From the NCBI GenBank assembly GCA_000990005.1, contig LBPF01000006.1, forward strand, positions 33,615 to 97,614: a stretch of DNA of 64,000 bases, written 5' to 3'. The DNA comes from Candidatus Woesebacteria bacterium GW2011_GWB1_33_38 (GTDB taxonomy: Bacteria; Patescibacteriota; Microgenomatia; UBA8517). How positions within the stretch are numbered: the stretch's first letter is position 1; the number at the start of each line of letters is the position of its first letter. A program made the translations under genes and the position numbers. The notes beneath the pieces were generated by a model that ran no database searches, had not been told where the DNA came from, and saw only the letters and a list, made by a program, of their open reading frames with translations. Below, piece after piece: positions 3,815 through 58,639 of this stretch.

Positions 3815-5590
3815 TTATTGAATCTCACCCAAATACTTTTTTGTTAATTCGTCTTTAGGGTCTATTTTTTCTAAGATATATTTTAACTCATTTTCAGCCT
3901 TTTCAAACTCATGAAGATCAATAAAGGTAAGTCCTAATGCAAACCTTGCATCTTTGTAATTTGGTTTTAATTCTACTGATTTTGTAAAATAAACGGCTGC
4001 GTTGTTTAAATCATTTATTTTTAAGTAATAAATACCAATTTGATAATAATTCTTTGGATCATTGGGGACATTTTTGCTGGCATCTTTTAAAGTGTCAATA
4101 GCTTCTTGATATTTAGCGTTTCTAGAGTAAATACTTGATAGTGATCTTCTGAGGTTTATATTATAGGAAGAAAGTGAGACTGCCTTTTTAGCTAAATCGA
4201 TATTCCCTTGAGATACCGCAAGTTCATTGATATATAGGGCTTCGTTAGGAGAATACTTTAAAGATTTCAAAATTTCTTGTTTAGCCATTGGTAAATTTCC
4301 TGATTTATTAAAGAGTTTGGCTTTATTGTAGTGAATGTCAGCCAGCCAATATCTAGAGATCATAAGTAATAAGTAATAAGTAATAAATATAACTCCAACA
4401 ATAAAAACCCATTGCATTATGTTTGATTGCTTCAGTTTTTGCCATTCTACATCCTGCTTACTACTTACTACTGCCATAGCTGGGAACAAAAAGAACAAAA
4501 GTGAAACTGGAACAACTGAAAAGCCAAAGAAATTTGTTATTAATATTCCAACATATCCTGTTAAAAATTCATATCTTTTGGATTTTAGTAAAACGTAAAG
4601 AGTAAAAGTAATAATTACTAAGTAACTTAAAAATCCTAATATTCCAGTATTTGCCAAATAATTTAAAAATTCATTGTGTGCCTTGTTATATATAAAGTCC
4701 CACTCAGAAGTTAAGTTGTGTTCCATGGGTTTATAGACTGGAAAGGAAAATGCAAAAGTTTCAGGACCAGTTCCTAGAATTGGATGAGATCTAAAAACAT
4801 TGAAGGCACCCAGCCAAACATACTTTCGAATGGTTCCTGACTCTGTACCACCAACCTCAAGGGCTGGACCGCTTGAAACAGTAATCAGTGAACGGTAATC
4901 AGTGAACGGTGAAGAAAAAATAAAAAATAAAATTAAGAAAGAAAAATTAAGAATTAAGAATCCTTTTACAAACTTAAATTTATTTTTATAAAATATAAAT
5001 CCCCAGAAAATTATAAATTCAATACCAAAAGACAAAAGACCAGATCTTGATCCTGTAAATAATAATGTAACAAAAAATAAAATAGAAAACAGGCTATAGG
5101 CTATATGTTTCATGCTATATGCCCAAGTAATTGGAATTAATGCAACCAATATTGCAGCAAGCCAATTGGGTTGCCCAAGGGTTGAAAAAACTCTGGTTTG
5201 TACATCTTGTACCCAACAAGATTCTGTCCATCCCAAATTCATTAATCCGCAAGTTATAAACAGGCCAAAATGTTCGAGGATCGCAAGTATGCTTGCTATA
5301 AAAGTAGAAAGTAGTACGTAGTATGTAGTATGTAAAGCTTGCCTTTTGCTTAAATTGCTGACGAAGGCCCAATATAATAGGACGTAGCAGATTTGAGAAA
5401 TTAGGCCTCCATTAAAGCGTGAATAGTAGCCTAAAATTGAAGTTCGTGGGTCAATGGAAAAAAGTGTACTAAGTAAAAAGAAAAAAAGATATAAAGTGAG
5501 TGGAATATCTAGTATTGTGCGACGAAAGATAAGTTTCTTTTGGAGTATTGATTGATAGGACCAAGTAGTTACAATTAATGTGGTCATCAT
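3815..5590 (-). CDS. Polytopic membrane protein with O-antigen-ligase (Wzy_C)-like core and C-terminal TPR repeats
   Basis: Many transmembrane segments; a TPR-like C-terminus (YYQIGIYYLKINDLNNAAVYFTKSVELKPNY). The start is ambiguous: the longest ORF runs to 5782 (GTG) but would overlap divergent mreB by more than 90 nt; Met codons at 5590/5587 avoid the overlap. Confidence 0.55.
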   Translation of the reverse strand: MMTTLIVTTWSYQSILQKKLIFRRTILDIPLTLYLFFFLLSTLFSIDPRTSILGYYSRFNGGLISQICYVLLYWAFVSNLSKRQALHTTYYVLLSTFIASILAILEHFGLFITCGLMNLGWTESCWVQDVQTRVFSTLGQPNWLAAILVALIPITWAYSMKHIAYSLFSILFFVTLLFTGSRSGLLSFGIEFIIFWGFIFYKNKFKFVKGFLILNFSFLILFFIFSSPFTDYRSLITVSSGPALEVGGTESGTIRKYVWLGAFNVFRSHPILGTGPETFAFSFPVYKPMEHNLTSEWDFIYNKAHNEFLNYLANTGILGFLSYLVIITFTLYVLLKSKRYEFLTGYVGILITNFFGFSVVPVSLLFFLFPAMAVVSSKQDVEWQKLKQSNIMQWVFIVGVIFITYYLLLMISRYWLADIHYNKAKLFNKSGNLPMAKQEILKSLKYSPNEALYINELAVSQGNIDLAKKAVSLSSYNINLRRSLSSIYSRNAKYQEAIDTLKDASKNVPNDPKNYYQIGIYYLKINDLNNAAVYFTKSVELKPNYKDARFALGLTFIDLHEFEKAENELKYILEKIDPKDELTKKYLGEIQ

Positions 5591-20455: not shown

Positions 20456-21676
20456 ATGAAGTTGACTGATAGTTTTGTAACAACATTAAGAGATGCGCCA
20501 AAGGATGCATTAACAATTAATCATCAGCTTTTGGTTAGAGCAGGGTTCGTTAGGCAACTAATGGCTGGGGTTTATACATATCTTCCATTGGGTTTAAAAG
20601 TTCTAAATAAAATTAGTCAAATTGTTAGAGAAGAAATGAATGAAATTGGTTCAACTGAGGTTTTGATGCCGATTCTCCATCCTGCAATAAATTGGAAAAT
20701 AACAGGTGGATGGGATAAGATTGATGTTTTGTTTAAAGTGAAATCAAGAACAAAAAGAGATTACGCATTGGCTCAAAGTAATGAAGAAACAGTAACCCCA
20801 TTAACTTCCGAGTTCATCCACACTTACAAAGATTTACCTTTGTCTATCTATCATATTAATTGGAAATTTAGGGATGAGTTAAGGAGTAAATCAGGAATTC
20901 TAAGGGGTCGTGAGTTTTTAATGAAAGACCTTTACTCTTTTCATATTGATCAGGAAGATTTTGACAAATATTATCAAACTGCCAAGAAAGCATACTTGAG
21001 AGTTTTTGAAAGATTAGGGTTGGTTGCCAAAGTTACAGAAGCTTCAGGTGGAGGATTTAGTGAAAAAGTTTCATATGAATTTGAAGTTTTGACTTCGGCT
21101 GGTGAAGCAAATATCTTGTACTGCAACAATTGCGAATATTGTGTAAATATTGATGACATTAAAAAATATAATGAAGGGGATAATTGTCCACTTTGCAAAA
21201 AAGCGAAATTAAAAGCATCACTTGCTTCTGAAGTTGGTAATGTTTTTGATTTAGGTCAAAAATATACCAAGGCATTTGGATTAACAGCCGTAAACGAGAA
21301 AGGAACAAAAGTCTATCCTATCATGGGTTGTTATGGAATTGGAATTTCTAGAACCATGGGAGTTATTGTTGAAAAGTTCCACGATGATAAAGGTATAATT
21401 TGGCCAAGGGAAGTAGCACCTTTTGACGTTCATTTGGTAGGACTTAATGGAAAGGGTGAAGATTTATACAAGAAACTTAAAGAAAATCATATTGACGTTT
21501 TGTTTGATGACAGAGATCTTCCTGCGGGACAGAAGTTTAATGACGCTGATCTTATAGGAATTCCTGTAAGACTTGTAGTTTCAGAGAAAACCTGTGAGAA
21601 AATTGAGTTTAAAGAACGAACTTCAGATAAAACAGAATTGTTAAGTTTTGATGAAATAATTAAGAAATTAAAGTAA
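20456..21676 (+). CDS. proS: Proline--tRNA ligase (short form without editing insertion)
   Basis: Class II aaRS motifs; N-terminus and length (406 aa) match compact ProRS. Confidence 0.8.
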   Translation: MKLTDSFVTTLRDAPKDALTINHQLLVRAGFVRQLMAGVYTYLPLGLKVLNKISQIVREEMNEIGSTEVLMPILHPAINWKITGGWDKIDVLFKVKSRTKRDYALAQSNEETVTPLTSEFIHTYKDLPLSIYHINWKFRDELRSKSGILRGREFLMKDLYSFHIDQEDFDKYYQTAKKAYLRVFERLGLVAKVTEASGGGFSEKVSYEFEVLTSAGEANILYCNNCEYCVNIDDIKKYNEGDNCPLCKKAKLKASLASEVGNVFDLGQKYTKAFGLTAVNEKGTKVYPIMGCYGIGISRTMGVIVEKFHDDKGIIWPREVAPFDVHLVGLNGKGEDLYKKLKENHIDVLFDDRDLPAGQKFNDADLIGIPVRLVVSEKTCEKIEFKERTSDKTELLSFDEIIKKLK

Positions 21677-27942: not shown

Positions 27943-29277
27943 ATGACAGAAGGGGACATTAAAGTTGTGGGTTTGTCTTCAAGTAAAAAGGGCGGTCAAA
28001 CAAACTGGAAGATAATTGGTGCAATTATCGGGATTATTGTTTTGGCTCTAGGTATTGTTGCTGGTATCCTTCTCGTTAAACAGCAACAGGATATTAGGGA
28101 AAAGGCTGAAATTGTTTCTTGTGTTGACCCAACTGTTGAACAGTGTCCTGTAGCTGGTAAACCTGATGTTTTAAGAAATTGCCATCCGCCTCAATCTGAC
28201 AACTCCCCCGTTGAAAGTATTTGCAATGAAGAAGGAAAAATCTCTTTTTGTGGCAATAAGAATTATTGTTGCCCATCAGTAGGTGGATCTTGGACAACTG
28301 ATATGAGCGTTTGTACTTTAGATGTATTTCCTAAAGTAGATTTAATTCCCGCGGAAGCCGAAGTTTCTTGTGCTCAAGGTTTTACGGATTCTTTTGATAC
28401 CATCGATTTGACCAAATGGAACAAAGAAGGTGATGTGAATGTAAATGGTGGAGTACTGGAAGTTAAAAGGGATGAGCCAGGTACGACAAGTTATGATGGT
28501 TTATATACAAAGAATTCCTTTACAGATGATTTTACAGTCGAAGTTGATGTACCTGAAGTTAATAAATCAGGTGATGGTGGTGGTGGTGCTACAATCTTAT
28601 TTACTACAGATACAACAGAGGGTTTGTCGGTTGTTCGACAAAGAAAGAATAACAGGGGCGGTGCTGGTGTTTGGCAAATTACTTCAAGATTGAATGTAGG
28701 TACTAACTTTGATAATGGATTGAAAACATTAGCACAAGGGGCAGTTTCATTTAAAGTAGAACGAAAAGCGGGAAAATTTAAGATTTTTTACAAAACTGGA
28801 GCTAATTATATACTTCTTGATGAACCAACATTAACATTAACAAAGCCAATTCAAAAAATTCATTTATCTGCTATGAACACAGAATATATCGCTTCTGAAT
28901 ATACACTTGTTAAATATGATAACTTTAAAATTTCTTGTTCTGGTAATATTGCTACAACGACTCCAACAGCTACAGCAAGTGCAACTAGCACACCTACTTC
29001 TAGTCCAACACGAACACCTACAACAACACCAACTGCAACAGGGGTCGGAACAGCAACACCAACAGCAACTGGGCAGAGGACTGCAACAGCCACGGCAACA
29101 GTTACTTCAACATCAACATCATCAACAAGTGCGACAAAAACTCCAACAGCTAGAGCCACCGCAACATCAACGTCATCGTCAGCGCCTATTCCAGTAACTG
29201 GAATGAACTTACCAACAATGATTGGTGCAGGTTTTGGTATTCTTATGATTCTGATTTCCCTTGCCCTAGCTTTATAA
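27943..29277 (+). CDS. Cell-surface protein: N-terminal signal anchor, Cys-rich and beta-rich domains, Thr/Pro/Ala/Ser linker, C-terminal hydrophobic anchor
   Basis: The TTTPTATASATSTPTSSPTRTPTT… low-complexity tract is followed by PIPVTGMNLPTMIGAGFGILMILISLALAL. Confidence 0.6.
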   Translation: MTEGDIKVVGLSSSKKGGQTNWKIIGAIIGIIVLALGIVAGILLVKQQQDIREKAEIVSCVDPTVEQCPVAGKPDVLRNCHPPQSDNSPVESICNEEGKISFCGNKNYCCPSVGGSWTTDMSVCTLDVFPKVDLIPAEAEVSCAQGFTDSFDTIDLTKWNKEGDVNVNGGVLEVKRDEPGTTSYDGLYTKNSFTDDFTVEVDVPEVNKSGDGGGGATILFTTDTTEGLSVVRQRKNNRGGAGVWQITSRLNVGTNFDNGLKTLAQGAVSFKVERKAGKFKIFYKTGANYILLDEPTLTLTKPIQKIHLSAMNTEYIASEYTLVKYDNFKISCSGNIATTTPTATASATSTPTSSPTRTPTTTPTATGVGTATPTATGQRTATATATVTSTSTSSTSATKTPTARATATSTSSSAPIPVTGMNLPTMIGAGFGILMILISLALAL

Positions 29278-35562: not shown

Positions 35563-36807
35563 ATGAATTCTCTAAAAGTAAATTTTTCATTTGTTAGAAA
35601 GACAATTTTAATTACCCTTTTTGTTGGTATTATTTTTTCTTCTGGATATATATTTGGTCTTAATGGTTTTAAGCTTGAGACTGGTGGTTTTCCAAAGATT
35701 AAAATTTCAAGAGAAATCCCTAATAATCATGAGGACGTTGACTTTGCACTTTTTTGGAGAGTTTGGGATACTTTGGATTCTTCATACTATGACAAGTCTA
35801 AAATAAACGTATCAAAAATGGTCTATGGTGCAATTTCTGGTATGGTAGCGTCTTTGGGTGATCCTTACACAGCTTTTCTTCCTCCTGAAGAAAATAAAGT
35901 AGTTGAAGAAGATCTGTCTGGTTCGTTTGAAGGAGTGGGAATTCAAATAGGGTTTAAAGGTAAAAACCTAGCAGTTATCGCTCCACTTCCTGGTTCACCT
36001 GCAGAAAAAGCTGGAATTAAGGCAGGGGATTTTATTGTTGGCATTAAAGATGAAGTTAAAAAGATTGATACGGGAACTTCAGGAATTACACTTAGCGATG
36101 CTGTAAAAATAATTAGAGGTAAGGCAAACACTAAAGTAACACTACTTCTTTTAAGAGATGTGTCAAATGAGCCAATTACTGTTACTGTAGAAAGAGCCAA
36201 GCTTGATGTGCCTTCTGTTGCTGTTTCATTTGTAGAGAATGGGACTATAGTCCATATAAAATTACTTAAATTTGGTGCAGATACTGACACTGAGTGGAAC
36301 AAGGCTGTACAAGAAGTTATAAATCATAAACCAACGGTAATTGGAATTATTCTTGACCTTAGAAATAACCCAGGTGGTTATTTACAAGGCTCGGTTGATA
36401 TTGCAGGTGAATTTTTAGACAAAGGTTCAGTTGTTGTTATTGAAGACAGGGGAGTACTCAAAAATGATTTTAAAACAGATCGGATTGGGAGTTTTACAAA
36501 CAAAAATGTTATTATTTTAGTTAATGCTGGTAGTGCTTCAGCTTCTGAAATTCTAGCGGGAGCTTTGTCTGAAACTAAGGGTTATAAATTAATAGGGGAG
36601 ACTACTTTTGGCAAAGGAACAATTCAGGAACCTCTACAACTTGAAAAAGGAAGCAGTCTTCACATCACAACTGCAAAATGGTTAACACCAAAGGGTGTGT
36701 GGGTTAATGAAAAAGGGATTACTCCTGATTTAGTAATTGAAGATAATCCTGATACCATCATCGACGAGCAACTCCAAGAAGCTATAAAACAAGTAACTAG
36801 AAGTTAG
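35563..36807 (+). CDS. ctpA: C-terminal processing (S41) peptidase with PDZ domain
   Basis: N-terminal transmembrane segment, PDZ segment and S41 catalytic region. Confidence 0.75.
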   Translation: MNSLKVNFSFVRKTILITLFVGIIFSSGYIFGLNGFKLETGGFPKIKISREIPNNHEDVDFALFWRVWDTLDSSYYDKSKINVSKMVYGAISGMVASLGDPYTAFLPPEENKVVEEDLSGSFEGVGIQIGFKGKNLAVIAPLPGSPAEKAGIKAGDFIVGIKDEVKKIDTGTSGITLSDAVKIIRGKANTKVTLLLLRDVSNEPITVTVERAKLDVPSVAVSFVENGTIVHIKLLKFGADTDTEWNKAVQEVINHKPTVIGIILDLRNNPGGYLQGSVDIAGEFLDKGSVVVIEDRGVLKNDFKTDRIGSFTNKNVIILVNAGSASASEILAGALSETKGYKLIGETTFGKGTIQEPLQLEKGSSLHITTAKWLTPKGVWVNEKGITPDLVIEDNPDTIIDEQLQEAIKQVTRS

Positions 36808-37532
36808 GAATTAGAATTTAGATTTTTTGTAAGCTCAATTACTTTTTCTAAGTTTCCCTCTACAATTGATTCAAGGTTGCCCCAGGATTTTTTTAATCTA
36901 TGATCTGTAATTCTATCCTGTGGAAAATTATATGTTCTTATTTTTTCGCTTCTCTTGCCACTTCCAATTGCTGATCTATAACCTGTAATTTTAGTTAATT
37001 TTTCTTCTTCTTGTTTTTCCCAGAGCTTGGATCTTAAAAGTGACAATGCAATTATTCTATTTTGTTCTTGGAATCTTTCTTCTCTTGATTGGACCACAAT
37101 ACCTGTTGGGATATGCTTTAGTCTTACTGCAGTAGCTACCTTATTTACATTTTGTCCTCCATGACCTCCTGCTGTTGTAAACTGCCACTCCAACTCCTGT
37201 GAGTTAATTTGCACATCAGTTTCTTTAACTTCAGGTAATACTACTACTGTTGCGGTTGATGTGTGGATCCTTCCCCTTTTTTCTGTTGTTGGCACTCTTT
37301 GAACCCTATGAACTCCTGATTCATTTTTAAGATCGTCAAATACACCAAAACCTGTTATTTTTAAGGTCAGTTCATCAATTTGAGATTGTTTCCAATTTTT
37401 CTTAGTTGCAAATCTTCCGTACATGCGAAGTAGATCTTGTCCCCAGAGCTTGGCTTCATCTCCACCAGTAGCACCACGGATTTCTAAATATACTATTTGG
37501 TTATTTGGATACATGTTTACGAAGGGCTTCAA
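36804..37532 (-). CDS. prfA: Peptide chain release factor 1 lacking N-terminal domain 1
   Basis: PTT (PxT codon-recognition motif), GGQ, and RF1-type [16 protein letters not shown]; only 242 aa, beginning just before domain 2; there is no room upstream for domain 1. Confidence 0.7.
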
Positions 37533-37818
37533 GTGTGTCTGGTCTATTCATTTCTTCATTTATCTTCTTTTCTCTTTTTAACTTTCTCTTATCTGCCTTA
37601 CTGACATTTTTAGTGGATTTACCTGTCATTTTGGTTTTAAACTTTTCAACTCTACCTGCAGTATCTAAAAATTTCATTTGTCCAGTATAGAAAGGGTGGC
37701 ATTTACTACAGACATCAACACGAACTTCTTCAGTTGTAGCACCGACCGTAAAAGTATTTCCACAAGCACAAGTAACTTTTGCATCTTTAAACCATTTAGG
37801 ATGAATAGCTGTTTTCAT
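37501..37818 (-). CDS. rpmE: 50S ribosomal protein L31 with about 30-aa Lys-rich C-terminal extension
   Basis: MKTAIHPKW…CACG…[10 protein letters not shown]; overlaps the prfA start by 32 nt. Confidence 0.8.
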
Positions 37819-37819
37819 A

Positions 37820-38728
37820 TCAGATATTGTATCGTTTTTTCTTGATTTCGGCAATGCCTACTCCAACAATTGCAATTACTCCACCAATTATAAGTTGTGA
37901 GGTTATTTTATCGCCCAACAAGAGTAAAGCAAATACAGCTGAAATTGCAGGATGAATATAGGAGAAAAGCGCAGCTTCTGAAAGTTCAATTGTTTTTTGC
38001 GCTTTTGCATTCAAATAATATGCTAAAGTTCCAGAAACAAAAGCCATGTATACCACCCCCAGGTGGTAAGGAAATGGGGTATAGCGAATAGCGTATAGGG
38101 TTTCGGATATAGAAGAATTAAACAAAACAAAAGGCAAAGTAGTTAAAAAACCAACGACAAATGACAGGTTAATCAAGAAAAATGGCTCATGCCCCTTTTT
38201 TAACAATGTTTTAGTCAAAAGTCCCGACATTGCTCCACAAAGAAGTGATCCTAGTATTAATATATTTCCTATCAATCGGTCAGGGCCATGGTCATTTGAA
38301 GTTATAGGTTCAACTGCAATAACAAGAGAACCAAAGAAAGCAATTAATATGCCTATTTTTTCGCGTTTTGTAACATGGTCGTGTAAGAAAAAATAACCAA
38401 ACAAAATCATTAAAATTGGTCCTAAAAGAGAAAGTAAGCTCATGTCAAGAAGTGTTGTTTTGTCTGTTCCCAAAAAGAGAAGTCCAAGTGTGGCTGTAGA
38501 ATTTAAGAAACCATAAAGTAGAAGTAACCAAAAATTCTTTTTAAGGTTATATAGTTTGGGAAGTAAAAAGGGTAGTGCAAAGATTGAAGCTATTAAAAAT
38601 CTATAAGTTATAAATAAAAGTGGGGGAATACCGTTTAGGGTTAATTTAATAACAGGACCTGCAATTCCCCAAATTAGGGCAACTCCAAGGAGCATCAAAT
38701 AGGCCTTTACTCTAGGAGTAATTTGCAT
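37820..38728 (-). CDS. DMT-superfamily (EamA) transporter
   Basis: Ten predicted transmembrane segments, duplicated EamA halves. Confidence 0.7.
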
Positions 38729-38881: not shown

Positions 38882-39853
38882 TCAGGGTAAATTTCCGAGT
38901 TTATTTACTAAAACTTTAGTATTAACTTTATCTACCTTGATTAATCCTAATTCATCGGCTGCCTCAACGGTTCTATCAAAACCAAAAGCAATTCCTGTTG
39001 CTGGCATATCAAGGCCTGTTAATCTTTTCATCATCCCGTCGTAGCGTTCACCACCACCAACAGAACCTACTTTGTAATCCTCGATGACGATTTCCCATAT
39101 TGGACCTTCCGAATATGAAAATGATCTGGCAAGGGTAGGTTCGAAACGATAAAACTCACGACTAAAACCTGACTTCTCTAAATATGCAATAATTATTTTT
39201 ATAGTTTCATCTGGTTTTATTTGAGAGACAAATTTTAAGTATTCCTTAGCTTTTGAATTAGAAATTCCTTTTTTGATCATGTCTGTTATTACCCCTTCTG
39301 GACCTATCTTTTTCAACTTATCTATGGCAACTATTGCTTCGTAGGAGACACCTTTCATAAGATCACGATTATTAAATATGATTACAGGTTTTTTAAAACC
39401 TATGGAAAGATAAGTATCAATATTTTCTGCAATAACTTCTGCGTCAGCAGTAGGGCCAGCAACACCAAAAATATCAAGATCAAATTGTGTGAACTCTCTA
39501 TATCTTCCCTTTTGAGTATTTTCTGCTCTAAATACAGATTGAAATTGATAACGTTTGAAAGGAAAAACCAAACTGTTTTGATTGTTTGCAACAAACCTGC
39601 ATGTTGGAACTGTTTGATCATAACGAAGCATTACTTCACGATCTCCCAGATCCTTGAACTTATAAAACATTTTTTCATCTTCACCAACTTCACCTTTGAA
39701 TAGTGAATATGACTCAAGTGTTGGAGTTTCAATTGGTTCATAACCCCACCTTTCTGCGGTTTTGATCATAATATCTTTAACCCAGTTTCGTTTATAAACT
39801 TCACTGGGCAAAAAGTCCCTAAATCCTTTTAATGTTTGTATTTTACTTGACAT
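38882..39853 (-). CDS. hisS: Histidine--tRNA ligase, catalytic domain ORF; the anticodon-binding domain continues in another frame
   Basis: GFRDFLP, RYDQTVP and GGGERYDG class II motifs; the ORF stops at 38882 while the C-terminal domain is encoded in the +1 frame downstream. Confidence 0.75.
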   Translation of the reverse strand: MSSKIQTLKGFRDFLPSEVYKRNWVKDIMIKTAERWGYEPIETPTLESYSLFKGEVGEDEKMFYKFKDLGDREVMLRYDQTVPTCRFVANNQNSLVFPFKRYQFQSVFRAENTQKGRYREFTQFDLDIFGVAGPTADAEVIAENIDTYLSIGFKKPVIIFNNRDLMKGVSYEAIVAIDKLKKIGPEGVITDMIKKGISNSKAKEYLKFVSQIKPDETIKIIIAYLEKSGFSREFYRFEPTLARSFSYSEGPIWEIVIEDYKVGSVGGGERYDGMMKRLTGLDMPATGIAFGFDRTVEAADELGLIKVDKVNTKVLVNKLGNLP

Positions 39854-39884: not shown

Positions 39885-40511
39885 CTACCTCGTTCGGTTA
39901 CGAACGAGGATTTTTTTGACTATTTCCAGATTTAAATCTTTTAACTTAGCTTTTGCTTTATAACTTTTGAAAAACGTTTCTTTATAATCAATAATTTTAG
40001 CGAAATTTGATTGATATGCAATTGCAATTGAAAATCTATTAGGTATAAAAATAGAATAAACTTTATATTTTAATTTTCTAACAATCTCAACTGAATACGC
40101 GAAATCAGCATCTCCTGAGACAATAATCGCAGTTTTAAATTTCTTTTGAAAAGCGTCTTTTGTTAGATCAACTGCTAAATGTACATCTACACCCTTTTCT
40201 TTTCCTGAAGTTGGTGATCTGTAGCCTTTGTAAAACACTAAATTGGGAGTTTTTAACACATCGTTAAAAAAGACCAATTCTTCTTTAATTTGTCTTTTTA
40301 TTTTCAAAACCTTTAAATTCTTAGCTGTTGATGGTGTATATGAAGCATAAAAATATATTTTGTCAAATTTATAAAGTTCTCTGAAATCACTTACGATCGA
40401 TTTAAAACTGGGTACTTTATCAAATCCAAAAATATCAATCAGCCCAGCAAGTAGATTTGTTCCGTCAATATATAAAAATGTTTTTTTATTATTTTTTCTT
40501 TTTGTAGACAT
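39885..40511 (-). CDS. NYN-domain (LabA-like) predicted RNase
   Basis: KKTFLYIDGTNL N-terminus and GKEKGVDVHLAVDL…AIIVSGDADF acidic motifs. Confidence 0.7.
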   Translation of the reverse strand: MSTKRKNNKKTFLYIDGTNLLAGLIDIFGFDKVPSFKSIVSDFRELYKFDKIYFYASYTPSTAKNLKVLKIKRQIKEELVFFNDVLKTPNLVFYKGYRSPTSGKEKGVDVHLAVDLTKDAFQKKFKTAIIVSGDADFAYSVEIVRKLKYKVYSIFIPNRFSIAIAYQSNFAKIIDYKETFFKSYKAKAKLKDLNLEIVKKILVRNRTR

Positions 40512-40529
40512 GGATTTATATTATCATCT

Positions 40530-41837
40530 TTAAGTTCCTTTTTGAACGAGTTTACGATTCCAATTTTCGGCAGCCTTTAAAATATATAAAACTGGTGGAA
40601 AGTTTTCTCTTGAACTTTTGCCTATTGTATAGTTTACATCTCTTTCTCGACGTTCTGTACTAATAAGAATTGTATTTTGATCTAATGTTCCCAAAATTAC
40701 CCCTTGAGCAGCATTACATGCCCAAATACTTCTTGTTAACTCAAGTGTCTTTTGCCTGATTTCATTTTCGGCAAATATCTTTCGTTTGGTTTGACTTTCA
40801 AATCGTCTTTCAACATCATCCTCAAATTTTTGATACCACTCTCTTGCAAAATCGTAATCTTTAAAGTTTTTAACTTTTTCTAAAATTTCCAATTTTACTT
40901 TTTGATAAACAGGATTTTCATTTGTAAGTTCCGAAATTGGTTTAATTACTATCCCTCGTGAATTTTGTAGATATTGCTTTACATTCACAATGTAATCTTT
41001 TATGTTTTGAAGATTTTTTAAATTAACTGGTCCAAATTCTCCAATTTCTGAATAATCTGTATCAGCAATATAAATTGTTAAGTTAGATTGAATCCCGTAA
41101 TATTCAAAAAAATTGGGAATAAGTAACATCTCATCAATGATAAGTGGTATGGCCTCAAGTTTTGGATTGTCAAGATAAGCATTCAGGTTCGGATTTGAAG
41201 TGTATCCACCTTTGTAATCAAATTCGTTTATAAGACAAAGCACCGTTATTAAGTTGATTTTTCCACCTTCTAATCCATTAAAAATAATTTGTTCAAATCT
41301 ATTCGAGCCCCAAATATTGTCTGTTTTTATTCTATTAATTTCATATTGAATTGAGGTTAATGTTAGTCCTTTTTCTTCATCTCCCATATCCTCGATGTAT
41401 TTAAGAAGCGATCTTTTTAGCTGACTTATCCTTTGGTTATATAAAGTGGTGTTTAAATATTTTTCAATATCTTGATCTGTAATTTTATTTTCTATATCTT
41501 TTTTAATAACTTTTTCTGCATCAGGCAAACTTAGATCAAGTTTGTCGGCAGTTTGACAAACCAATCTATTAAAATTATCTCCGTATGAATCGTTTGAGGG
41601 CGTTTGTTTTAGGTAATTAATTTTGGAATCCAAAGCTTCCCTTTTGAGTCTTTCGTATTCGTTGTCGTTAGTATTGATCCATTTTAGAATTCTTTTTGTT
41701 TCGAACTTTAAATTATCTAAAATCCATTTTTCACCTTCGTTAAGATTCTTTTTTGGTTTGCTTAGGCTCTTTGAAAATTCCGGAATTGAGGAATCTTCGA
41801 GAACCAAAAATGGTCCAAGTATTTTATGTAGTTCCAA
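40530..41837 (-). CDS. Hypothetical 435-aa protein (no recognisable domain); the only start is TTG with an in-frame stop immediately upstream
   Basis: ORF only; probably continuous with the upstream 103-aa ORF through a frameshift. Confidence 0.45.
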   Translation of the reverse strand: MELHKILGPFLVLEDSSIPEFSKSLSKPKKNLNEGEKWILDNLKFETKRILKWINTNDNEYERLKREALDSKINYLKQTPSNDSYGDNFNRLVCQTADKLDLSLPDAEKVIKKDIENKITDQDIEKYLNTTLYNQRISQLKRSLLKYIEDMGDEEKGLTLTSIQYEINRIKTDNIWGSNRFEQIIFNGLEGGKINLITVLCLINEFDYKGGYTSNPNLNAYLDNPKLEAIPLIIDEMLLIPNFFEYYGIQSNLTIYIADTDYSEIGEFGPVNLKNLQNIKDYIVNVKQYLQNSRGIVIKPISELTNENPVYQKVKLEILEKVKNFKDYDFAREWYQKFEDDVERRFESQTKRKIFAENEIRQKTLELTRSIWACNAAQGVILGTLDQNTILISTERRERDVNYTIGKSSRENFPPVLYILKAAENWNRKLVQKGT

Positions 41838-43827: not shown

Positions 43828-45150
43828 ATGGCTGATAATAATCAAATTAGAGTACCACCGCATAGTATTGAAGCTGAACAAAGTGTCTTGGGGGCACTAC
43901 TCCTTGATAAAGATGCAGTTATTGCTGTTGCTGAATTTTTACTTGCAGAGGACTTCTATGATGAACGTCATAATGAAATATATGAAGCCATTTTAACTCT
44001 TTATGAAGAAAGATCACCTGTTGACGTTTTAACAGTTGCAGAAAAGTTAAAGAAAAACAAAAATTTAAAAAAAATAGGGGGAGCATCATACTTAACTAAT
44101 ATTGTCAATAAAGTTCCAACTGCAGCTCACGTTGAACATTACGGGAAGATTGTCAAGGATTTGGCCGTAAAAAGAGCTTTAATGAAAGCTGCTTCAAGAC
44201 TTGTAGACTTTTCAACCGATGAAGGTATTTCTTCTGCTGAACTATTAGATAAAGCAGAAGCTGAAGTTTTTTCCTTAACCCAAAAACATTTAACTAAAGC
44301 TTTTACATCAGTCAGGGATACTTTGGCTGAAAGTTTTGATAGATTAGATGAACTTCATAAACAAGGTGAAGGTTTAAGAGGAATTTCAACGGGATTTGAA
44401 AGTTTGGATAATGCACTGGCCGGATTACAAAAAAGTAATTTAATAATACTTGCGGCGCGCCCTGGTATTGGTAAAACCTCTTTTGCATTAGGAATTGCTC
44501 AAAATGCAGCCGTCAAAAATAAAAAAAATGTTGGCTTTTTCTCTCTTGAAATGAGCAAGGAAGAGCTTGTCGATAGACTTCTTGTTGCCCAAGCAGATAT
44601 TGATGCCTGGAGGTTAAAAACAGGTAAGTTAACCGAGGATGACTTTACTAAACTTTCAAATGCCATGGGAGTTTTGGCAGAAGCTTCTCTTTATATTGAT
44701 GATACACCAGCTCTTTCAATACTTGAAATGAGAACAAAAGCAAGAAGGCTCCAAGTAGAACATGGTTTGGATTTAATAGTTGTTGATTATTTACAACTTG
44801 CAAGAAGTAGAAACTTGGAAAATAGGGTACAAGAGGTAAGTGAAATTTCTCAAGGACTTAAAAATCTCGCCCGTGAACTTAAAGTTCCTGTAATTGGTAT
44901 ATCTCAACTGTCACGCGGAGTTGAACAAAGGGGGACAAGAAAGCCCCAACTTTCGGACCTTCGTGAGTCTGGATCAATTGAACAAGATGCTGACGTTGTA
45001 ATGTTTTTATGGCGTGAAAATGAGGATGATTTTGAAAATATAATGCTTGATATTGCCAAACACAGAAACGGACCCCTTGCTTCAGTTCCATTATTCTTCA
45101 AGGGAGATAGAATCAAGTTTTTCCCGAGAGATACAAAACATACAAAATAG
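43828..45150 (+). CDS. dnaB: Replicative DNA helicase DnaB
   Basis: Walker A GIGKTS, FFSLEMS, RecA-like C-terminal domain. Confidence 0.9.
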   Translation: MADNNQIRVPPHSIEAEQSVLGALLLDKDAVIAVAEFLLAEDFYDERHNEIYEAILTLYEERSPVDVLTVAEKLKKNKNLKKIGGASYLTNIVNKVPTAAHVEHYGKIVKDLAVKRALMKAASRLVDFSTDEGISSAELLDKAEAEVFSLTQKHLTKAFTSVRDTLAESFDRLDELHKQGEGLRGISTGFESLDNALAGLQKSNLIILAARPGIGKTSFALGIAQNAAVKNKKNVGFFSLEMSKEELVDRLLVAQADIDAWRLKTGKLTEDDFTKLSNAMGVLAEASLYIDDTPALSILEMRTKARRLQVEHGLDLIVVDYLQLARSRNLENRVQEVSEISQGLKNLARELKVPVIGISQLSRGVEQRGTRKPQLSDLRESGSIEQDADVVMFLWRENEDDFENIMLDIAKHRNGPLASVPLFFKGDRIKFFPRDTKHTK

Positions 45151-56693: not shown

Positions 56694-57623
56694 ATGCCCA
56701 GTCAAAATAAAACTTCAGAAATTGCAAAAAAAATTGATGAATTCTTGGACTATTTAAGTGTTGAAAAGGGATCCTCTCCCCTAACGATTAGAAATTACAA
56801 ACATTACCTAACTAGGCTTATAAAATGGCTAAATGCTAAAAAGATAAATGCTAAATTAGAAAATATAAATCAAGAAGTTGTTCATGATTATCGCATATAT
56901 TTATCAAAACTTGGCTTGGGCAGAAAAACTCAAGGATACCATGCAATAGCACTTCGCTCATTTTTAAAGTGGCTTATAAGAAACGATTATCAAGTCTTAG
57001 CACCTGACAAAATTGATCTTCCAAAAATTCCTGAAAGGCAAGTCAAATTTTTGTCAGGTGAACAAATAGATAGGCTTCTTAATGCTCCTACACTTTCCAG
57101 TATTCAAGGGATTAGAGACAAAGCAATTCTTGAAGTTTTATTTTCAACAGGTCTTCGTGTATCTGAACTAACAAACCTTAATATTGAAAAAATTGATTTT
57201 GAGAGGCGTGAATTTGGAATTACAGGTAAGGGTGGTAGGGCCAGGGTTGTTTTTCTTTCATCTCGATCTGCTGATTACTTAAAAAAATATTTAAATGAGA
57301 GAAAAGATCATTTTAAACCGCTTTTTATCCGTCATAAAGGTTCAGTTGATCCAACAACTCCCGATGAAAAAATGCGCTTGACTCCCCGATCAGTGGAACG
57401 ATTGGTTAAAAAATATGTACACAAGATGAAGCTTCCTATTGAAGCTACACCCCATAGTATTCGTCACTCGTACGCGACCGATCTACTTATAGCAGGGGCT
57501 GACATTAGGTCAGTCCAGGAAATGTTGGGGCATAAAAACATTTCAACTACCCAGATTTATACACATGTCACCAATAAACAGCTTCATGAAATTCATGAAC
57601 AATTTCACGGGAGGGGTAAATAG
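56694..57623 (+). CDS. xerC: Tyrosine recombinase XerC/XerD family
   Basis: R…HxxR…Y catalytic residues (GLRVSEL, HSIRHSYAT, IYTHV) and a Xer-type N-terminal core-binding domain. Confidence 0.8.
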   Translation: MPSQNKTSEIAKKIDEFLDYLSVEKGSSPLTIRNYKHYLTRLIKWLNAKKINAKLENINQEVVHDYRIYLSKLGLGRKTQGYHAIALRSFLKWLIRNDYQVLAPDKIDLPKIPERQVKFLSGEQIDRLLNAPTLSSIQGIRDKAILEVLFSTGLRVSELTNLNIEKIDFERREFGITGKGGRARVVFLSSRSADYLKKYLNERKDHFKPLFIRHKGSVDPTTPDEKMRLTPRSVERLVKKYVHKMKLPIEATPHSIRHSYATDLLIAGADIRSVQEMLGHKNISTTQIYTHVTNKQLHEIHEQFHGRGK

Positions 57624-57625
57624 AA

Positions 57626-58639
57626 TTAGTTGAGTCTAAAATAATTATCAAGAGCGAATTTTAATTGATCGGTAAACATTTTTTTGAGATAAAAAAGATT
57701 GTTTTGCTCGTAAAATAGTAAAAGTGATCTTCGATATTCATTTACATCGACATTTCTATATGAAAGTGGAAAATAATCATATGCTAATAAAATTGCATTA
57801 GCTAGTGTTCTGGCGGTTCTTTTATTTCCATCGGCAAATGGTTGTAAATAGGCAATCATAGATGAAGCAATTAGTGCTTTTTCAGGAGGGAAAGCAGTTT
57901 TATTTATTACATCAATTATTTTCTTAAGATTATTTCCAAGTTCGATATTTTGTGATCTAATTCCGCTTGAAATTAAATTTTTTGTTAGTACTCCATGAAG
58001 CTGTATTACATCCGTAAAATTTAGTTCTTTGAAACTCTCTTTATTTTTTAAAATCGTATCAAATGCTTTCTTGTGATTTATAAGCATAACTGCTTCTTCA
58101 TGAGAATGACCTTTTGCCTCTATGTTTTGTGTAAACAATGTCTCAGTTTCCAAGAGATCATACGTATTTCCTTCAATTTGGGCGGATTTCCAGGAAAATT
58201 CAATAACAAATCGTTCCAGTTCTCTTTTATATATGCTTTTATCTAAATTTGTGATTCTGAATTTAAATTCTTTTGAAGAATCATTCCAAAACACAATTTC
58301 TTTATTTAAAAATAAATTTGTTAAATTTTTAAAAACATCGTTATCAAAACTAGGTTTGGCGTTTCTATTATCCATGTCGTTTTTAAAATAATTTTCGATA
58401 TCGATAAATTTTAAAAGTGGATTAGTTTTTTCCAATGAATATACTTTTGCTCTCGCAGAACCTGCCTGCATTATTAGGTTTTGATCAATCAGGTTATTAA
58501 GGTCACGAATTGCTGTGATTCTTGAAATTAACTTTTTTCCTGAGAGCAATTTTGTAATTTCAAGACGTGATAGACTACCTTTTCCTTCTAGGATATTAAG
58601 CATTTGTTTTTGTCTATCGTTTAATATCGTATCATTCAT
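57626..58639 (-). CDS. Fic-family protein with N-terminal winged-helix
   Basis: Fic motif QPFADGNKRTAR. Confidence 0.75.
   Translation of the reverse strand: MNDTILNDRQKQMLNILEGKGSLSRLEITKLLSGKKLISRITAIRDLNNLIDQNLIMQAGSARAKVYSLEKTNPLLKFIDIENYFKNDMDNRNAKPSFDNDVFKNLTNLFLNKEIVFWNDSSKEFKFRITNLDKSIYKRELERFVIEFSWKSAQIEGNTYDLLETETLFTQNIEAKGHSHEEAVMLINHKKAFDTILKNKESFKELNFTDVIQLHGVLTKNLISSGIRSQNIELGNNLKKIIDVINKTAFPPEKALIASSMIAYLQPFADGNKRTARTLANAILLAYDYFPLSYRNVDVNEYRRSLLLFYEQNNLFYLKKMFTDQLKFALDNYFRLN

Follow-up and report, generated by a model that had tools for sequence, protein, structure and literature searches.

A predicted release factor 1 lacking domain 1, encoded at the ancestral L31-prfA locus of a Candidatus Woesebacteria genome

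Canonical release factor 1 (RF1, the prfA product; TIGR00019/PRK00591; 1RQ0 from T. maritima, 4V63 from T. thermophilus) has approximately 88–110 residues, comprising domain 1 and a linker, ahead of domain 2. Domain 1 is dispensable for codon-specific peptide release in vitro, truncated RF1 is functional in vivo, and interaction with release factor 3 (RF3) requires domain 1 (PMC1586002). Class I release factor homologues that naturally lack domain 1 are also known, among them the RF2-like PrfH (RFH, TIGR03072), whose translation is coupled to that of its upstream gene (PMC1586002), and the codon-independent rescue factors ArfB (YaeJ), ICT1 and C12orf65 (mtRF-R). Here we describe a predicted RF1 made up of domains 2, 3 and 4 only, encoded directly downstream of the gene for ribosomal protein bL31 in Candidatus Woesebacteria bacterium GW2011_GWB1_33_38, a bacterium of the Candidate Phyla Radiation (CPR). 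The analysis covers one stretch of 64,000 nucleotides (64 kb) from contig LBPF01000006.1 (positions 33,615 to 97,614), hereafter referred to as the window, and unless a relative is named coordinates are window positions. The features of the release factor gene are:

36804..37514, minus strand: prfA, encoding RF1 with domains 2, 3 and 4 only (236 aa, ATG at 37514, stop TAA at 36804-36806)
37371..37376, minus strand: codons for D47 and E48, flanking a 10-residue deletion in a domain-2 beta-hairpin, seen as a gap relative to canonical RF1
37284..37292, minus strand: PTT, the RF1-type PxT "anticodon" motif, read directly from the sequence
37152..37160, minus strand: GGQ catalytic motif of domain 3, read directly from the sequence

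The sequence-only reading of this region had reported an open reading frame (ORF) of 242 aa with PTT, GGQ and an RF1-type C-terminus, and ORF calling, Pfam and NCBIfam profiles and direct reading recover it as described. This mechanical ORF spans 36804..37532 on the minus strand, with a TTG start at 37532. We set the start at ATG 37514, since all 21 aligned homologues begin at the same Met (MYPNNQ/MNPxNQ), which makes it the likely initiation codon and leaves an overlap of 14 nt with the L31 gene. The two genes therefore do overlap, as had been noted; the 32 nt given for that overlap applies only to the mechanical TTG ORF.

The best NCBIfam models for the protein are both prfA models, TIGR00019 (matched at positions 111-345 of 361; 294.7 bits against a cut-off of 423.25) and NF001859 (positions 103-337 of 347; 301.7 bits against 400), the scores falling below threshold because the N-terminal third, domain 1, is missing. 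The Pfam RF-1 profile is matched at positions 2-116 of 116, and the PCRF match is confined to positions 100-194 of 194. In a search against solved structures, the alignment begins at residue 89 of T. maritima RF1, 108 of T. thermophilus RF1 and 110 of E. coli RF1 and continues to the C-terminus, with 50–60% identity over domains 2-4 and E-values down to 5e-65, while RF2 chains obtained far lower scores than RF1 chains. The protein has just 8 residues ahead of domain 2, and the L31 gene extends up to its start codon. With profile and structure alignments beginning only at RF1 residue ~89-111, the earlier proposal of an RF1 without domain 1 is upheld: judging by homology, the protein lacks the whole three-helix domain 1 and keeps domains 2, 3 and 4. 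The P and T of the PxT motif and the GGQ motif are invariant across the aligned short, intermediate and full-length RF1 sequences, as are the remaining stop-codon-reading and release elements (RVQRVP-x-T-E, RIHTS and the switch-loop-aligned region).

A further difference, absent from the sequence-only reading, lies in domain 2, where a gap between D47 and E48 in a beta-hairpin is visible both against solved RF1 structures and in a multi-RF1 alignment (columns 184-193). Ten of the sequences sampled share the 10-residue deletion; in each of them domain 1 is reduced or absent, and every full-length RF1 in the sample is without the deletion. This distribution hints that the domain-2 hairpin may be structurally coupled to domain 1; the 10 sequences are not phylogenetically independent.

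Placed beside the known factors, the window RF1 shares with canonical RF1 domains 2-4, the PxT, GGQ and switch-loop-aligned elements, the RF1-type C-terminus, the L31-prfA gene order and the level of identity given above over the common region. It differs in lacking all of the residues that canonical RF1 has before domain 2, in the domain-2 hairpin deletion, in having no prmC downstream and in scoring below the equivalog cut-offs. PrfH has a divergent decoding region and works with RtcB in rescue or repair, whereas the window RF1 has canonical decoding motifs and L31 as its upstream gene. Identification as PrfH was rejected, TIGR03072 yielding 63 bits against a cut-off of 166.65 over the GGQ domain only and the upstream gene being L31 rather than an rtcB-like gene. 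ArfB, ICT1 and C12orf65 share the GGQ domain and the absence of domain 1 but are without domains 2 and 4, which the window RF1 keeps; given this and an ArfB model score of 47 bits against a cut-off of 100, an ArfB/ICT1 identity was also rejected. The nearest functional analogue is E. coli RF1 engineered to lack its N-terminal part. Such truncations, made in both RF1 and RF2 of E. coli (work of Mora et al., 2003, as presented in PMC1586002), have the same domains-2-4 architecture, and that account gives codon-specific release in vitro, function in vivo and no ability to stimulate RF3. Those forms, however, are laboratory constructs in an RF3-bearing organism, whereas the truncation in the window is natural, fixed in its lineage and under purifying selection.

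The comparison with relatives that the sequence-only reading had proposed was carried out against a 5.8-billion-protein collection drawing on ENA, JGI, NCBI and Logan assemblies, the figures referring to the best 120 hits. All 120 RF1 hits are 230-242 aa long and 82–99% identical to the query, the named sources being Woesebacteria, Microgenomates or Patescibacteria, with some contigs of up to 841 kb. The EamA-L31-RF1 locus is present as in the window in a closed Woesebacteria genome (L001; CP129472.1, GCA_030583725.1, 841,695 bp), in the same gene order of HisRS-like, EamA, L31 (105 aa), RF1 (233 aa), convergent CtpB, S18, SSB, S6 and YchF, and the L31-RF1 locus was found also on independent contigs. 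Every short-RF1 locus examined as DNA has an in-frame stop codon just upstream, so that the short ORF cannot be extended at its N-terminus. Between the window gene and its L001 orthologue, the nonsynonymous and synonymous substitution rates (dN 0.106, dS 1.52; dN/dS ~0.07) indicate strong purifying selection on RF1.

To compare N-terminal regions across loci surveyed from several sources, we counted the residues between the start codon and the GG[DE]E motif with which domain 2 opens. This distance is 113-127 residues in ordinary bacteria (with a few longer outliers) and in Parcubacteria-type CPR, and 70-95 residues in five Microgenomates-type lineages (L006, L008, L009, L010 and L014). It falls to 12-31 residues in the window and in Woesebacteria (L001-L003), Amesbacteria (L004/L005), Gottesmanbacteria (L011) and two Patescibacteria (L040 and L054), the upstream stops confining the N-terminus to this range in six lineages. 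The intermediate proteins, of 296-339 aa and encoded at the same L31-prfA locus, still have a ~45-residue helical hairpin (consensus ..QID.ID.KI.E...LL.DPD..E[ML]AQ.E...L..QK), which corresponds to the distal part of domain 1 and is followed by a variable acidic linker. In the CPR relative L007, whose RF1 (P0256) clusters with Dojkabacteria RF1, a 76-aa L31 is followed by a full-length RF1 of 367 aa and then by HemK/PrmC. The full-length protein at L007 indicates the ancestral state of the locus, and by its position the window gene is an orthologue, occupying the ancestral L31-prfA locus. Within the limits of this sampling, loss in Microgenomates-type CPR forms a graded series, from full length through a ~45-residue hairpin to nothing.

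The series was placed on a neighbour-joining tree of RF1 domains 2-4 with 200 bootstrap replicates. The Microgenomates-type RF1 clade received 75% bootstrap support, fully truncated RF1 sequences were monophyletic in 0 of the 200 replicates, and a separate short pair (P0245 and L054, 82% support) fell elsewhere among CPR RF1, which suggests that domain 1 was reduced stepwise and was lost completely several times independently. A genome-collection scan with the RF1 alignment gave at least 600 matches among those listed, mostly from ordinary bacteria, of which L009, L010, L011, L014, L040 and L054 were informative. Stand-alone ORFs encoding domain 1 were sought with a profile of the hairpin remnant, which gave only 8 hits, these being contig-edge fragments; the single 52-aa ORF on a long contig (L209) is a frameshift case. 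In L209 (positions 4001-4757), a frameshift in an A-run divides RF1 into ORFs of 52 aa, with the remnant of the domain-1 hairpin, and of 213 aa. The case was set aside, as the split, accompanied by a second frameshift near the C-terminus, is most likely a long-read sequencing error rather than biology.

Stop-codon usage bears on what termination in this organism demands. Among 78 crude ORFs in the window, 41 end in TAA, 19 in TAG (24%) and 18 in TGA (23%). The use of TAG calls for RF1-specific UAG termination, and the use of TGA as well means that an RF2 must be encoded outside the window. No second release factor (full-length prfA or prfB) was found by tblastn within the 64-kb window, nor were prfC (encoding RF3) or PrmC, the enzyme that N5-methylates the GGQ glutamine. 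ORFs with a HemK/NPPY motif were likewise absent from the window, and from the vicinity of RF1 at all Microgenomates loci surveyed. PrmC/HemK directly follows RF1 in L007 (7091-7897) and in many ordinary bacteria; at Microgenomates loci a convergent CtpB protease usually stands after RF1 in its place. A metagenome scan for RF2 with an AT-biased SPFDxxxRRHTSF pattern retained 80 low-GC loci, and all RF2s among them with a readable N-terminal region keep the domain-1 region, with ~110-140 residues before GGxE. None of these loci could be assigned as a Microgenomates RF2; the lead candidate, L117, had only a GyrB match to offer and carries trpC, unlike CPR.

The genes surrounding prfA form a head-to-tail string on the minus strand, from an EamA-family transporter through bL31 to the class I release factor, with a convergent protease gene beyond:

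37820..38728, minus strand: EamA-family transporter gene, 1 nt upstream of L31 and ending in TGA
37501..37818, minus strand: rpmE, encoding bL31 (105 aa, ATG at 37818, stop TAA at 37501-37503)
37504..37620, minus strand: C-terminal tail of L31, residues 67-105, with the alignment motif SK.DKRK.K.EK.I..E..RPDTL..LR
37501..37514, minus strand: 14 nt in which the 3' end of the L31 gene overlaps the 5' end of the RF1 gene (ATGTATCCAAATAA), without a Shine-Dalgarno sequence
35563..36807, plus strand: CtpB-like S41 protease gene, convergent on the release factor gene

An EamA orthologue holds the same position in L001-L003, its gene in the window has a length matching that orthologue when ended at the TGA, and it is probably in one operon with L31. 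The CtpB-like gene occupies the place that prmC has in the relative with full-length RF1 (L007). The spacing between L31 and RF1 is 0-3 nt at the closest related loci and 17-107 nt at others. No Shine-Dalgarno sequence was present when looked for upstream of the RF1 start and, together with the tight spacing (a 14-nt overlap in the window, at most 3 nt between the genes in the closest relatives), this suggests that RF1 translation is coupled to that of L31. Scanning the locus for promoters and terminators gave nothing beyond shuffled expectation.

The mechanical L31 ORF spans 37501..37854 on the minus strand (117 aa, TTG start); the start is most likely ATG 37818, as in relatives, giving 105 aa. 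The best 120 L31 homologues are mostly 102-109 aa long and cover 91–100% of the query. The protein has the bL31 type A zinc motif CxC...CxxC (CAC...CSKC) and scores above cut-off with both PF01197 (96.8 bits) and TIGR00105 (89.9 bits). Beyond the L31 domain, which extends to residue ~66-70, lies a Lys/Arg-rich tail of ~39 residues conserved in relatives, so that the Lys-rich C-terminal extension noted from the sequence is borne out. In the AlphaFold2 model the tail has a helix at 74-90, a break at RPDTL and a second helix at 96-103, with a predicted local distance difference test score (pLDDT) of 73-84. Of the 9 clade-A (Microgenomates-type) arrangements examined, 7 carry a related C-terminal motif, [RKAG]P[KDS][TS]L..[LM], and 2 the variant KSYQDIL/LSYKQIL, and the tail is kept whether the clade-A RF1 has a hairpin remnant or nothing. 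Lys/Ala-rich L31 tails without the motif stand beside full-length RF1 in Parcubacteria-type CPR, Saganbacteria and Elusimicrobiota, and earlier work counts enlargement of bL31 among the traits of CPR (PMC9297842). We treat the tail as a separate ribosomal feature of the lineage, with nothing linking it to the RF1 truncation.

Taken together, the short protein is very probably the organism's working, housekeeping RF1, vertically inherited at the ancestral L31-prfA locus and with its three-helix domain 1 deleted. The codon-reading superdomain is kept (domains 2/4, with PTT, RVQRVP and RIHTS), together with the switch-loop-aligned region and the GGQ domain 3, and from these retained decoding and catalytic elements ordinary release at UAA and UAG is expected. 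As other RF1s do, the factor would bind the A site at UAA or UAG, open, and insert GGQ into the peptidyl-transferase centre. Contacts of domain 1 with the L11 stalk and RF3 would be lost, and the factor presumably departs from the ribosome spontaneously, without RF3; its expression would probably depend on translational coupling to L31 inside an EamA-L31-RF1 operon. RF3 is missing in 72 of 191 surveyed genomes, most small ones included (PMC1780047).

Several points weigh against this explanation. Bacillus, Mycobacterium and Mycoplasma, which lack RF3, still keep domain 1 (PMC1780047), and the absence of RF3 alone therefore fails to explain the loss; domain 1 presumably has other roles, which would have to be dispensable or compensated here. 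The genome is seen only across the 64-kb window, and a second full-length RF1 may be encoded elsewhere, although none of the evidence hints at it. The RF2, RF3 and PrmC of the lineage are not located in the window or in the collection scans, which lacked the specificity needed to reach a Microgenomates RF2. The AlphaFold model of the short RF1 is poor (mean pLDDT 50, from a shallow alignment) and was not used, so that the RF1 fold is predicted from sequence homology. Finally, the case for repeated loss draws on a neighbour-joining tree that is weakly resolved and built from one protein, and that is not a species tree.

Other accounts of the locus have to be weighed against a housekeeping RF1. 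An artefact of assembly or annotation, or decay of the gene into a pseudogene, deserves almost no credence as the source of the truncation. Clipped RF1 calls, lacking N-terminal sequence, are indeed numerous for ordinary bacteria in protein databases, and the relative L209 has a frameshifted RF1 copy on an error-prone contig, but hundreds of independent contigs from several sources yield the same protein, of 230-236 aa, one carrier of the short RF1 is a closed genome, purifying selection on the gene is strong, and L31 abuts the start codon, leaving no room for a missing exon-like piece. On the strength of the conserved lengths, the closed-genome synteny and the upstream stops, the artefact that the sequence-only reading had held out as an alternative was rejected; it had also named relatives with a full-length RF1 at this locus as a sign of such an artefact, and one was indeed seen, but only in the more distant CPR lineage L007, where it indicates the ancestral state. 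The database "RF1" of ordinary bacteria often begins at ...LLLPKDPND.. or is duplicated or fused (P0241 and P0244, 477-481 aa), and such entries appear to be clipped or chimeric gene calls. Since they are common, short length alone is no evidence of natural truncation. The protein might instead be an auxiliary release factor paralogue acting in rescue or quality control, like PrfH or ArfB, with a canonical full-length RF1 encoded elsewhere. Known domain-1-less homologues (PrfH, ArfB, ICT1) are rescue factors, NCBI labels these proteins "peptide chain release factor-like protein", and our view of the genome covers 64 kb. We nevertheless consider a paralogue unlikely, as the gene lies at the orthologous L31-prfA locus and falls within CPR RF1 in the tree, every RF1 decoding residue is kept, scores with the PrfH and ArfB models fall far short of the cut-offs given above, and no rtcB partner is nearby. 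Moreover, the nearest named full-length RF1 clusters are Dojkabacteria or Patescibacteria-labelled, none being Woesebacteria.

A more far-reaching account would have Microgenomates terminate translation with class I factors without any domain 1 and without RF3 or PrmC. Its strongest form has the basic helix-turn-helix tail of bL31, or another lineage-specific ribosomal element, dock the factor, and a form stronger still has no RF2 at all, the short factor reading UGA; as it stands this account is decidedly unlikely. Very unlikely, too, is that the L31 tail replaces domain 1 in trans, or is RF1 helix 1 captured when the gene boundary shifted, and so docks the truncated factor. Within our sample the motif-bearing tail occurs only in lineages whose RF1 is short of at least ~25-45 N-terminal residues, its length (~35-40 aa) resembles the amount lost in the intermediate forms, and the sole hhalign match pairs it with the RYEEL..L.DPE segment of RF1 helix 1. 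That profile-profile match of the tail to RF1 domain 1 is not significant (probability 1.7%, P-value 0.03), homology is not shown by it, and descent of the tail from helix 1 was rejected as unsupported. The co-occurrence of tail and truncation is confounded by shared ancestry, all cases lying in one clade. In 70S structures bL31 spans from the central protuberance to the 30S head, far from the L11-stalk site of domain 1, which speaks against replacement in trans. The tie between the L31 extension and the truncation that the earlier description had implied also finds no support on comparison, given that the same tail, unchanged, accompanies RF1 with a partial domain 1, that basic tails occur with full-length RF1 elsewhere, and that enlargement of bL31 is general in CPR (PMC9297842).

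Our literature search, with subscription journals outside its coverage, found no description of a CPR RF1 without domain 1. A natural domain-1-less RF1 in CPR thus appears to be new, the dispensability of domain 1 in the laboratory being already known. Ordinary bacteria, many of them RF3-less, have domain 1 in both RF1 and RF2, and candidates for an RF3-independent role include contact with the L11 stalk, on and off kinetics, and accuracy. A lineage-wide and apparently recurrent loss in a large group of bacteria, with visible intermediates, would provide a natural deletion series for the role of domain 1, indicating that selection can preserve domains 2-4 alone as the RF1 encoded at the ancestral prfA locus and offering short RF1s as ready-made proteins for kinetic and structural study of what domain 1 contributes. 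The CPR ribosome, which has no uL30, often no bL9, and altered rRNA, may be a context in which domain 1 is dispensable. In practical terms, a short prfA that falls below curated thresholds and is named "release factor-like" may lead automated annotation and completeness estimates to score RF1 as missing.

Other features of the window include a second translation gene of reduced length. The histidyl-tRNA synthetase (HisRS) gene at 38882-39853 (minus strand) encodes 323 aa matching hisS profile positions 1-332 of 406, without the anticodon-binding domain, and the Woesebacteria orthologue in L001 has 290 aa. Syntenic orthologues in Amesbacteria and other Microgenomates (L004, L006, L008 and L209) have 391-415 aa and include HGTP_anticodon, and the shorter form looks as though another translation protein of the same lineage has lost a domain. 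Prolyl-tRNA synthetase (20456-21676, plus strand) is a compact 406 aa, matched by the bacterial proS model in two pieces and without the inserted editing domain. Three ORFs have no family match, at 27943-29277 (plus strand, 444 aa), 39885-40511 (minus strand, 208 aa) and 40530-41837 (minus strand, 435 aa); Pfam gave no match to the 444-aa and 435-aa ORFs and NCBIfam none to the 208-aa and 435-aa ORFs, the latter two lying just upstream of the HisRS-EamA-L31-RF1 string. A tyrosine recombinase gene of the phage-integrase family (56694-57623) adjoins a Fic/DOC-domain gene (57626-58639), and the pair may represent a small mobile or toxin-type module. The DnaB of the closed-genome relative L001 (3738-6326, 862 aa) contains an intein with a LAGLIDADG endonuclease, and the DnaB encoded in the window (43828-45150, 440 aa) is intein-free.

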